IMG/VR virus record: IMGVR_UViG_3300029194_000001
Span: 68,238 to 132,237 of that record
Length of the DNA: 64,000 bases
Source: a virus
Reading direction: 5' to 3' (one strand)
Part shown: positions 27,980-30,765 of the stretch, in pieces
Numbering within the stretch: position 1 is the stretch's first letter
Layout: each line of letters opens with the position of its first letter
Made by a program: the position numbers and the translations under genes
Notes under the pieces: generated by a model
What the model saw: the letters and a program-made list of their open reading frames with translations, nothing else
Told to the model about the DNA's origin: nothing
The model's database searches: none

Positions 27980-29212
27980 TTATTTATTTCCAATTCTTTG
28001 AGCTTTTTGTTTTAGTTTTTCATTAATCTCTTTCATCTGCAGCGTAATGATTTTGTTCTGCAAGTAAGCAGGATTAATTGGAAACTGTTCATCTCTAAGA
28101 ATTACTTCCGAATCTGCTTCAAATTTATTACACATTTTTACCGCTTCATCGTGATCAAAATTTTTCATTTCAATCTTAATGTCAAATCGTCCATCTCGAA
28201 TAAGAGCAGGATCTAGTCTATCAATATAATTTGTTGTTGCTAAAAATATTGTTTTCTTACATGAGTTAATTCCATCTAAGAGTTGCAATAATGCTTGAAA
28301 ATTTTCTTTGTCTGCAGAGGTAACACTATTATCACGTTTGCTTACCAGAACATCGATATCTTCTAACACTACAACAGAATCTTCTAATTTTTTCCAAAAT
28401 TCATTCTTTGAAATTAATTTTGATAAATCATTCAATGTGAACTTAACAAGAGTTAAGTCGTACTTTGTTGCCAAGACCTTGGCAAAAGTGGTTTTACCAG
28501 TACCAGGTTCACCATAAAGAAGGATGCCAATTTTGTGATTAATTCCACATGATGTAAAATACGTTTCAGAATTCAACCATGCGTCCAAATAGCTAAATAT
28601 TTCATTTTTTTCTGGGAATATAATTGCGTTTTCTGAAATACCATCAATTTCATCGTCAAGTTCATTTGTCATCTTATCTGTTTTATCAATTTGCAGAGTA
28701 TCTATTGTCATATATTTACTATTATATTTATCGCAAAATTTTCTAAAAAAATCTGCATGTTCTTTTCTATGAGGACCGATAAAATAAATATTTGCATAAT
28801 CTAAAAAACTACCCTTACTTAATTTGGCAACCACTTTAGTTTTATCTTTGCAAGTAAATACAAATTTTCGTTCATATGGAAGCATATAATAAACTCTATC
28901 GTTTCTCACAAAGCACTGTTTATATTCCTCTATATCACCAATATATTTTTTGTATAGTTTTGGATCGAGTTTATTTAAATACCAGCAAATATTTTTAATA
29001 TCATCAGAATATGATGTAAAAAATCCAACAATTAATTTGTCTTGAAGCCTATTAATCTTATCAACAAAATAATTTTTTCCAATCGTAAATAAAAAATCAT
29101 TCACGTTGTATTCAATGGCATTTTTAATTCCAAGCTGTTTTGTTAAATTTGCTGCATCTTGGAAATTATGTAGCAAAGCACCGGCATTAAAATATCGTGT
29201 ATAATTTAACAT
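27980..29212 (-). CDS. AAA+ ATPase (classic AAA clade) with an unknown 200-aa N-terminal domain
   Basis: Walker A LLYGEPGTGKTT, Walker B VVVLEDIDVL, second region of homology ATTNYIDRLDPALIRDGRFD. Confidence 0.8.
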   Translation of the reverse strand: MLNYTRYFNAGALLHNFQDAANLTKQLGIKNAIEYNVNDFLFTIGKNYFVDKINRLQDKLIVGFFTSYSDDIKNICWYLNKLDPKLYKKYIGDIEEYKQCFVRNDRVYYMLPYERKFVFTCKDKTKVVAKLSKGSFLDYANIYFIGPHRKEHADFFRKFCDKYNSKYMTIDTLQIDKTDKMTNELDDEIDGISENAIIFPEKNEIFSYLDAWLNSETYFTSCGINHKIGILLYGEPGTGKTTFAKVLATKYDLTLVKFTLNDLSKLISKNEFWKKLEDSVVVLEDIDVLVSKRDNSVTSADKENFQALLQLLDGINSCKKTIFLATTNYIDRLDPALIRDGRFDIKIEMKNFDHDEAVKMCNKFEADSEVILRDEQFPINPAYLQNKIITLQMKEINEKLKQKAQRIGNK

Positions 29213-29230
29213 TTAATATCTCCAATCTAT

Positions 29231-30013
29231 TTATTTACCAAACACCCTCTTGAATACCATATAGTTCGTACCGCCAGGAATCGCAAATATAATATTCTCA
29301 AAAGTATCGGTATAATATTCTTCTAATTCTTTTTTGAAACTATTCGCAACAAATTCTGCATCATTACCAAATACACCACATCCCCATGCGCCAAGAATTA
29401 ATGTATTAACTTCCTCTTCTTGTGCAATATCAAGCATAAAATGTATACGATCAACCATTGCAGAATTACAATCAAAATCAGATTTACCACAATATTTCTG
29501 AGCTGCAGTTTTGTTTGGTGCTGCACAAGTAATAACATCTACACAAATCTCTTCATCGCCTCTTATGAATAAAACATCATGACTATATAATGCACGATTT
29601 GTATATAATGCGAAGTTCTTAGTCATTCTATTGAATTCATAATAATCTTCATCAAATTCAGATAACACATTATATAGGAAGGAACTGTGGCAAAGCATTT
29701 CTTCCTGTGCAGAAGATCCATCTAAAAATTTGCCACCTGGATTTTTATAGCTTGCAAAATTAAGAACTGCTGTTTTACCTGTGTTTTCATAAGAAAATAT
29801 TGCCTGTACACTATCCATATCTTCTACAGTGATTTTCTGATGAAAATCCGGCTTACTATCGCATTCTTTTTTACAATAGAACTCTTGGTCATATACTTTT
29901 GTATTGTTTACACATTCTGTAATTTCCAAGCTATATAGCTCTTCCATTTTATTTGTATGAACATTCGCCTTTTTCTTTAATTCAGTTTTCCTATTCCAAT
30001 ATCCCATTACCAA
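29231..30013 (-). CDS. bacterial-type poly(ADP-ribose) glycohydrolase-like macrodomain protein (TIGR02452/DUF2263 family)
   Basis: VLNFASYKNPGGKFLDGSSAQEE matches the PARG signature GGG-X6-8-QEE. LGAWGCGVFGN matches the macrodomain diphosphate-binding loop. Confidence 0.65.
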   Translation of the reverse strand: MVMGYWNRKTELKKKANVHTNKMEELYSLEITECVNNTKVYDQEFYCKKECDSKPDFHQKITVEDMDSVQAIFSYENTGKTAVLNFASYKNPGGKFLDGSSAQEEMLCHSSFLYNVLSEFDEDYYEFNRMTKNFALYTNRALYSHDVLFIRGDEEICVDVITCAAPNKTAAQKYCGKSDFDCNSAMVDRIHFMLDIAQEEEVNTLILGAWGCGVFGNDAEFVANSFKKELEEYYTDTFENIIFAIPGGTNYMVFKRVFGK

Positions 30014-30765
30014 ATCCTCACAATCTGGTGATATAGTAAAATTTCTTTATCATTTATCTGCTTATCATCATGTAAGTGTCCGAAGAACCATTTCTTAAAT
30101 TCACACTTATATTTAATTTCTTCTAAATATGCATTTAGTTCATCTGTCTTAAAAGACCCATGACTATACAAAGCTTTTGTACTTGAAGTACAGTCATGTG
30201 TAATTATATAATCAACTTTCCAGTTGTTATTTTCTAAATTATCTAATCCAATTTGCATCTCTTCTTGAGTTGGCATTTCTTCTTCCCACCATGAGATGCC
30301 TTTTACTCTATAAAATAAATTATCTTTTCTAAGTTGTTTTTGTTTCTCTGTAAAGTCTGGATCATCTAAATCAAGCAAATTCTCAATATCATGGGATCTT
30401 GCACCACCAAAAGTAAATATTGTGCAGCCATCAATATTAAAAACTTGTCCTCTCATCAGATGCAATACATGTGGTCTAATCTCATGGACCAGTCCACTAT
30501 TCCATTCTTTTACAGGATAGTCTGCAAGTCTAGGATGACAATCGTGATTACCATCAACAAAAAGAGTTGTAAACTTTTTATTCTCAAGCCAGTTAAGCCA
30601 ATACTTTTCTGAATGTGTTTCAGTTAGATAATTCCAAACCAATCCGAAGTCACCACAAATAATTACATAATTTTCATTTTGATCGGTAAACGTTTTCTGC
30701 TCTGGAAAATTATCCATACTTAGTCTTGTTACATCACCATGCGTGTCACCTGTTATATAAATCAC
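30007..30765 (-). CDS. calcineurin-like metallophosphoesterase
   Basis: GDTHGD, ICGDFG, GNHD and GHLHD metal-binding motifs in canonical order. Confidence 0.75.
   Translation of the reverse strand: MIYITGDTHGDVTRLSMDNFPEQKTFTDQNENYVIICGDFGLVWNYLTETHSEKYWLNWLENKKFTTLFVDGNHDCHPRLADYPVKEWNSGLVHEIRPHVLHLMRGQVFNIDGCTIFTFGGARSHDIENLLDLDDPDFTEKQKQLRKDNLFYRVKGISWWEEEMPTQEEMQIGLDNLENNNWKVDYIITHDCTSSTKALYSHGSFKTDELNAYLEEIKYKCEFKKWFFGHLHDDKQINDKEILLYHQIVRIW

Follow-up and report, generated by a model that had tools for sequence, protein, structure and literature searches.

Bacterial-type poly(ADP-ribose) glycohydrolases (PARGs) were long enigmatic; their reversal of toxin-made ADP-ribosylation at the 2'-OH of RNA was first demonstrated in 2025. 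SCO0909 of S. coelicolor and DRB0099 of D. radiodurans reverse both the 2'-OH RNA ADP-ribosylation made by RhsP2 and 5'-phosphate ADP-ribose caps, and shield E. coli against this toxin. PARG-class enzymes were the only ones among the hydrolases tested to reverse the 2'-OH modification, and the DRB0099 operon also holds a ligase and an HD-phosphatase/polynucleotide kinase (PMC11833690). Of jumbo phages, 56% carry Macro domains (PMC9503650), and BCS1 orthologues are a recurrent jumbo-phage feature (PMC7824862). Here, we describe a PARG gene that lies between an AAA ATPase gene and a metallophosphoesterase gene in a 64,000-nucleotide (nt) stretch of viral DNA, hereafter the window (positions 68,238 to 132,237 of IMG/VR record IMGVR_UViG_3300029194_000001). 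The original prediction, made from the letters alone, regarded this combination as undescribed as an anti-defence module, which overstates its novelty: earlier accounts of jumbo phages already include each of the three components, namely macro domains, BCS1-like ATPases, and calcineurin-like phosphoesterases (PMC7824862, PMC9503650). Nevertheless, our literature searches turned up no article in which a phage PARG is named, tested, or described as an anti-defence factor, and the PARG class in phages thus appears under-described.

The middle gene, which belongs to the accessory region of a large AT-rich gut phage (~200 kb), encodes an intact bacterial-type PARG. Its open reading frame (ORF; 29231..30013, minus strand) encodes a 260-aa protein of the TIGR02452/PF10021/DUF2263 macrodomain family; the true start is probably the ATG at 30007, which gives 258 aa, because the N terminus MGYWNRK matches those of homologues. 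The protein matches TIGR02452 with E = 7e-58 and 196.2 bits (cut-off 50) and PF10021 (PARG_cat_microb) with E = 2e-29 and 103.3 bits (cut-off 23.5), as well as the solved structures of the PARGs from D. radiodurans (5zdg, E = 6e-28) and Thermomonospora curvata (3sig, E = 1e-19). These matches, like those of the ATPase and the phosphoesterase given below, are far beyond chance. Only PARG-class models exceed their cut-offs, the other macro match being a sub-threshold one to a MacroD-like model (NF001668, 21.6 bits versus 278), and profile search places the protein outside the DarG/TARG1-type (TARG1/ALC1-like) class of macrodomains. PADLOC returned nothing for the PARG or the phosphoesterase. The macrodomain identification made earlier is borne out by the TIGR02452 search together with the invariant catalytic residues described below.

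Both motifs quoted in the original prediction, the PARG catalytic signature and GAWGCGVFGN, are present in the protein. The catalytic loop, NPGGKFLDGSSAQEE, aligns to NPGGGFLGGAQAQEE of the D. radiodurans PARG and contains the signature P92-G93-G94-K95...Q103-E104-E105, in which the third glycine is replaced by lysine (GGK, not GGG). The diphosphate loop GAWGCGVFGN spans residues 208-217 and aligns to GAWGCGVFRN of 5zdg. In a 21-sequence alignment of phage and bacterial homologues, G93, G94, Q103, E104, and E105 of the catalytic loop and G208, A209, G211, G213, V214, and F215 of the diphosphate loop are invariant. We mapped the window proteins onto 13 close relatives from IMG/VR, in which the PARG is 81-97% identical with all catalytic residues kept. 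Relatives lie on IMG/VR viral contigs of 170-220 kb, those of the 13 reaching up to 222 kb, confirming that the gene is phage-borne; the 13 form a single lineage (at least 81% identity), in which a shared adjacency counts as one observation. PARG was found in 172 viral loci in all, and the nearest bacterial homologues are 43-51% identical and come mostly from Lachnospiraceae.

Comparing the window PARG with DRB0099, SCO0909, and the T. curvata enzyme, all belong to the same family and share the QEE loop, the diphosphate-binding loop, and a length of ~260 aa. Likewise, linkage to RNA-processing genes is a feature common to the window and DRB0099, the latter with its ligase and HD-kinase. However, the window PARG is phage-encoded, only ~30-40% identical to these enzymes, carries the GGK signature, and has other neighbours. 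ADP-ribose-removing enzymes with a plausible counter-defence role are also found in large phages, including the jumbo-phage Macro and NADAR domains (Iyer et al. 2021, 2022) and the orphan DarG-like/NADAR antitoxin mimics of T4-like phages and chimalliviruses. The characterised ones are of the DarG/TARG1 type or are NADAR enzymes acting on DNA bases, whereas the window's enzyme is of the PARG class, whose known bond specificity is for ribose- or phosphate-linked ADP-ribose. Reversal of ADP-ribosylation, as proposed originally, is therefore plausible as a general role, but its DarT-specific version is disfavoured, as the protein is not a DarG/TARG1-type macrodomain. The class known to reverse DarT-made thymidine ADP-ribosylation is DarG/TARG1, not the PARG type (PMC11833690), and the literature consulted yielded no published test of such a PARG on ADP-ribose attached to thymidine in DNA. 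Reversal of the DarT mark is the role we favour least for the PARG because its known erasers belong to other macrodomain classes or are NADAR enzymes.

The reading we favour, if tentatively, is that the PARG works alone as an ADP-ribose glycohydrolase, is encoded in an accessory region for RNA repair and counter-defence, and likely acts on RNA. Its substrate would probably be ribose- or phosphate-linked ADP-ribose, most plausibly on RNAs of the translation machinery; the published biochemistry of bacterial PARGs agrees with the tRNA-repair gene context. The enzyme is predicted to bind a terminal ADP-ribose through the GAWGCGVFGN loop, while the E104/E105 pair would hydrolyse the O-glycosidic bond at C1'' of that ADP-ribose and release free ADP-ribose. 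The likeliest substrates would be RNA that carries ADP-ribose on a ribose 2'-OH or on a terminal phosphate, or else chains of poly(ADP-ribose), in which the ribose-ribose bond is the same. Its job may be to undo ADP-ribosylation set on tRNA, rRNA, or mRNA by host defences or competing toxins during infection. It would act beside the phage's translation-maintenance genes, namely its own tRNAs (Leu-TAG, Met-CAT, and two Gln-TTG; 23682..26890, just downstream of the gene array), a tRNA nucleotidyltransferase (CCA-adding enzyme; 35301..36767), an RlaP-family nucleotidyltransferase (RNA-ligase-associated Pol-beta; 42614..43666), a T4 Rnl1-type RNA ligase (62533..63783), all on the minus strand, and two phosphoesterases. 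The Dbr1-like phosphoesterase next to PARG may add a phosphodiester or end-healing step on the same damaged RNA, although it is clearly dispensable. The Bcs1/YjoB-like ATPase would be an independent protein-remodelling or translocation factor, with a fast-diverging N-domain that probably sets its target specificity.

Gene neighbourhoods in other PARG-bearing genomes provide the comparative setting. These comprised phages, including Lak megaphages and Bacillus phage G, 67 further IMG/VR loci, 80 bacterial-genome loci (63 with a PARG ORF in the phmmer analysis), and four chromosomal Lachnospiraceae loci; pooled, the 140 loci fell into 67 lineages when grouped at 70% PARG identity, with flanks of 5-6 kb. 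The three genes on each side of PARG were clustered across lineages, and the families were confirmed with Pfam. An NrtR-type Nudix regulator is found near PARG in 6 lineages, a phrog_1649-type phosphoesterase in 4, the RNA 2'-phosphotransferase KptA/Tpt1 in 3, Thg1 in 2 (one with 8 loci), RlaP in 2, and a nicotinamidase-like isochorismatase in 2 (one with 40 loci). Other recurrent neighbours are PhoH and an HD-like 150-aa protein with no Pfam match. In one compact cluster (L113, 4113-7559), an HD-like protein without a Pfam match, PARG, Thg1, and a phosphoesterase follow one another in this order, and in a phage-like region of Eubacterium sp. AF22-8LB (L124, 2291-9600), five metallophosphoesterase genes of three types are packed around PARG, along with a weak CCA-enzyme-like match at 28% identity. 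The link between KptA and PARG is weak: KptA is common in gut phages (153 loci), but among the 80 loci listed only 2 have PARG on the same contig, and no member of the window's phage family does.

Several points weigh against an RNA-directed role. The RNA substrate is argued from gene neighbourhoods and from homologues of only 30-40% identity, and no ADP-ribosyltransferase defence is known for the phage's host. In the window, the RNA ligase and RlaP genes are 13-33 kb away from PARG, tblastn found no KptA, Thg1, or nicotinamidase (nor NrtR), and Pfam and PHROG scans of the larger ORFs detected no ADP-ribosyltransferase. Moreover, RNA-repair neighbours are present in a minority of the 67 lineages, most of which show no informative neighbour; proximity is itself weak evidence, since large phages pack accessory genes together, and the enrichment of phosphoesterases near PARG was judged against a rough expectation only.

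The PARG could instead degrade poly(ADP-ribose) that a PARP-like enzyme of the host produces in answer to DNA damage or infection; clostridial bacteria can carry genes for such enzymes. The family was defined by poly(ADP-ribose) hydrolysis, C. difficile CD160 has both an active PARP and a DUF2263 PARG (PMC5966428), and the predominance of Lachnospiraceae among the nearest bacterial homologues is consistent with such a role. However, no PARP gene was seen adjoining PARG across the 67 lineages surveyed, and bacterial PARPs are sporadic; we consider this role unlikely.

Another candidate set of substrates is soluble. The PARG, possibly with the phosphoesterase, might hydrolyse ADP-ribose derivatives such as Thoeris-type glycocyclic ADP-ribose or by-products of RNA repair dependent on nicotinamide adenine dinucleotide (NAD), and so feed NAD salvage. 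The 1''-2' glycocyclic ADP-ribose made by Thoeris-type TIR proteins has a ribose-ribose O-glycosidic bond. NrtR, which belongs to an ADP-ribose-responsive regulator family, and isochorismatase genes recur beside PARG, and a published prediction assigns the breakdown of such signals to Macro domains of jumbo phages (PMC7824862). This signal clean-up nevertheless seems improbable: no PARG-class macrodomain has been shown to cleave cyclic ADP-ribose isomers, the intramolecular bond may not suit an exo-acting pocket, and no NAD-salvage gene was found in the window.

We give little credence to the view that the PARG erases the marks of a phage-encoded T4 Alt/Mod-like ADP-ribosyltransferase or is a passenger, newly acquired, that plays no part in infection. 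More than 40% of jumbo phages encode ADP-ribosyltransferases (PMC9503650), and the region around PARG is highly mosaic. Yet no transferase was found in the ORFs scanned over the 64-kb window, with ~150 kb of the genome lying outside it, and the conservation of the PARG at 81-97% with its catalytic residues in the 13 relatives, together with its presence in 172 viral loci, argues for selection.

The gene preceding PARG in the direction of transcription (30007..30765, minus strand) encodes a 252-aa calcineurin-like metallophosphoesterase of the phrog_1649 family ("metallo-phosphoesterase", E = 9e-39). The Pfam scan gave no match for this protein itself, but it has the five metal-binding motifs and the alpha/beta sandwich fold of the calcineurin-like superfamily. 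The metal-motif residues D7, H9, D39, N73, H74, H190, H230, and H232 are invariant among 33 homologues, and the AlphaFold2 model, with a predicted local distance difference test score (pLDDT) of 93.6, has the metallophosphoesterase fold. The nearest folds are Dbr1-type phosphodiesterases; Mre11 and SbcD matched as well, and all three are nucleic-acid phosphodiesterases. By sequence, there was no match to solved structures even at E = 1. The family is very large, with at least 7950 matches that are commonly ~60% identical, and NCBIfam scans of the window's two phosphoesterases and five PARG-linked ones from other loci gave no meaningful family. Dbr1 has a Cys in motif I. The window protein, in contrast, has the canonical GDTHGD in this motif and lacks both the Dbr1 C-terminal domain and a sequence-level match to Dbr1. 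The proposal that the protein is an ADPRibase-Mn, that is, an ADP-ribose/CDP-alcohol diphosphatase, did not stand up, since other folds are closer than the ADPRM type; nothing specific speaks for an ADP-ribose pyrophosphatase activity. A second, unrelated metallophosphoesterase (phrog_547; 34464..35132, minus strand) is part of the wider gene context.

The gene following PARG (27980..29212, minus strand) encodes a 410-aa Bcs1/YjoB-like AAA ATPase of the classic clade. The three ORFs thus have the coordinates and strand given for them originally, and the identities of the ATPase and the metallophosphoesterase hold. Residues 230-349 of the ATPase match PF00004 (E = 7e-25), and the AAA domain, at approximately residues 200-410, contains the Walker A motif GEPGTGKT, the Bcs1-like Walker B motif VVVLEDID, and arginine fingers in RDGRFD, all three invariant across the family alignment. 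In addition, the protein carries a family-specific FPINPAYLQNKI motif. Its model (pLDDT 84.5) aligns full length to Bcs1 and to Bacillus subtilis YjoB; in Foldseek, the alignment to full-length Bcs1 covers ~400 columns with E = 1e-19 but a TM-score of only 0.48. Like mitochondrial Bcs1, YjoB, and the jumbo-phage BCS1-like ATPases, the protein is ~400 aa long, with a single classic AAA cassette and an LEDID Walker B. However, it differs from Bcs1 and YjoB in having no obvious N-terminal membrane anchor and in having an N-domain that is hypervariable among near-identical phages. The Pfam scan gave no PF08740 match for it, and a hydrophobic N-terminal segment is not evident by eye; some distant family members have one. 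The N-domain of ~195 residues is 33-39% identical between alleles, compared with 82-88% for the AAA domain and ~95% for the flanking PARG genes, a pattern that suggests recombination-driven diversification of a putative specificity domain. The ATPase of one relative (L003) combines parts of two alleles in mosaic form.

Distant homologues of the ATPase are present in 220 phage records, mostly of jumbo phages, and some are annotated as BCS1-domain proteins. One (L093, 5001-9214) lies near Metallophos, isochorismatase, and Prs-like phosphoribosyltransferase genes, and another (L099, 6001-11776) near SIR2 and Macro genes. PADLOC matched the ATPase to IetA (E = 6e-19) and TRIP13, in the AAA core only. 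Membership of the IetAS anti-phage system (IetA/IteA) was rejected, with 61 bits against NF042959 compared with a cut-off of 510 and neighbouring genes that have no protease match.

We then weighed whether the three genes form one module, as originally proposed. They are adjacent and probably co-transcribed. The stop codon of a small upstream ORF, p121, overlaps the GTG start of the phosphoesterase (GTGA), and the phosphoesterase stop overlaps the ATG at 30007 (TAATG); these overlaps couple the translation of p121, the phosphoesterase, and PARG. The spacers before the ATPase (18 nt) and before the next gene, p173 (15 nt), both contain Shine-Dalgarno-like sequences. The ATPase adjoins PARG in all 13 close relatives, which count as one lineage. 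The phosphoesterase, however, is intact in only six of these, split by an insertion in six, and absent from one (L012), while PARG is intact in every one. The insertion is ~1.6 kb long (L001, 4229-5806; also in L002, L003, L004, L010, and L011) and costs the phosphoesterase ~60 residues. Its ORFs, of 130 and 313 aa, contain AVDLGIN, a motif resembling that of RuvC, and match OrfB_IS605 (TnpB) weakly, at 22 bits, below the cut-off; these features suggest that an IS605/TnpB-type element is active in a large gut phage.

A more distant relative, L087, retains the ATPase (54% identical) and has neither PARG nor phosphoesterase, with two small ORFs in their place. Its gene order is otherwise that of the window: CCA enzyme, second phosphoesterase, p373, p138, p72, SPFH, and, further on, ATPase and p173. 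Beyond this phage family, no ATPase of the window type is found within 5-6 kb of PARG in the 140 loci of 67 lineages, and a phosphoesterase of either window family adjoins PARG in three lineages, in varying order, and lies within 5-6 kb in eleven. In one chromosomal Lachnospiraceae lineage (L094-L097, 5041-6813), a MoxR-type AAA+ gene (PF20030, bpMoxR) is followed after 3 nt by a PARG gene with 50% identity to that of the phage, and housekeeping genes (PP2C phosphatase, PASTA kinase, and RsgA) surround the two. A general rule pairing AAA+ proteins with PARG was rejected, as the MoxR-PARG pairing is confined to this single lineage and its ATPase is of a different clade.

The loss or disruption of the phosphoesterase in 7 of the 13 relatives, the ATPase kept without PARG in L087, and the survey of 67 lineages mean that a three-gene module is not supported. 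Neither the ATPase nor the phosphoesterase is an obligate partner of PARG, and the association between PARG and phosphoesterases is recurrent but loose. An anti-defence module in which the PARG strips DarT-modified DNA or phage proteins while the phosphoesterase destroys ADP-ribose or signals derived from it is thus most improbable, even with the adjacency and coupling at this locus, the MoxR-type gene 3 nt upstream of PARG in Lachnospiraceae, and the ATPase homologues found elsewhere near SIR2, Macro, isochorismatase, and Prs-like genes, given also that ADPRibase-Mn is not the nearest fold of the phosphoesterase.

Returning to the stand-alone eraser acting on RNA, a broader version of it would join the PARGs of large gut-Firmicutes phages, their variable metallophosphoesterases, and tRNA-repair enzymes (Thg1, the HD-like protein, the CCA-adding enzyme, RlaP, RNA ligase, and sometimes KptA) into one hitherto unrecognised counter-defence pathway of RNA de-ADP-ribosylation and end healing. 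Toxins of the host or of competitors that attach ADP-ribose to tRNA and rRNA, at the 2'-OH or at terminal phosphates, would be neutralised in this way. The Bcs1-like ATPase could, independently, be an arms-race factor with a swappable N-domain, unfolding or translocating a host defence protein. Taken as a whole, this joint reading seems doubtful.

The window as a whole is a phage segment of 32% GC with essentially all genes on the minus strand. Megablast of the region against 50,697 phage records gave no match, indicating a phage without a close cultured relative. A replication module occupies 1-20 kb, including a split ribonucleotide reductase, a DNA ligase, a RecD/Dda-like helicase, a 1105-aa DNA polymerase, RecJ, a primase, and DnaB. 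The accessory array is tightly packed on the same strand and lies upstream, in the sense of transcription, of the four tRNA genes. In transcription order, its upper part consists of the CCA-adding enzyme, the second metallophosphoesterase, several ORFs of no known function, an SPFH/Band-7 protein, and small ORFs, and its lower part of p121, the phosphoesterase, PARG, the ATPase, and p173. ORF p121 (30762..31127, minus strand) has its probable real start at an ATG near 31022, giving ~86 aa; it matched no family in Pfam, NCBIfam, or PHROG scans and is kept in close relatives. The 173-aa predicted coiled-coil protein of unknown function, p173 (27443..27964, minus strand), lies 15 nt downstream of the ATPase and remains beside it in L087, which has no PARG; the idea that it is a paralogue of the neighbouring phrog_1491 protein was rejected on comparison. 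A consensus scan of 26.7-33.4 kb found no terminator-like site on the minus strand, and a promoter scan was uninformative, with 34 promoter-like sites compared with 34.1 expected.

Several other features of the window were recorded. The SPFH/Band-7 protein (phrog_200; 31488-32507) is found in some relatives and absent from others (e.g. L001-L004 and L007-L009), which identifies the stretch at 31-33 kb as a region of variable cassettes. An 875-aa P-type cation-transporting ATPase (39984-42611), matched by the E1-E2_ATPase, Cation_ATPase_N, Cation_ATPase_C, and Hydrolase models and unusual in a phage, is encoded directly downstream of RlaP and a 682-aa phrog_1735 protein of unknown function. The large subunit of ribonucleotide reductase is divided between two ORFs (2192-5595), one for the N-terminal part (4759-5595) and one for the C-terminal barrel and TSCPD (2192-3415), with a homing-endonuclease-like ORF (3767-4390) between them; an intron- or intein-type interruption is probable. 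The phrog_5698 family, of unknown function, is represented by three tandem paralogues of 192, 217, and 188 aa (37925-39772). A closely spaced pair of DNA methyltransferase genes (phrog_116 and phrog_67; 56444-58473) presumably serves anti-restriction self-methylation.

Overall, the result is a solid annotation and a comparative-genomic lead, not a new system. The leads of most interest are the recurrent clusters of PARG, tRNA-repair, and phosphoesterase genes and the hypervariable N-domain of the ATPase, and the viral PARG loci offer a ready set of enzymes for testing. The presence of PARG in 172 viral loci, recurrently near tRNA-repair and NAD genes, suggests that RNA-directed ADP-ribosylation may be a real pressure on gut-Firmicutes phages.

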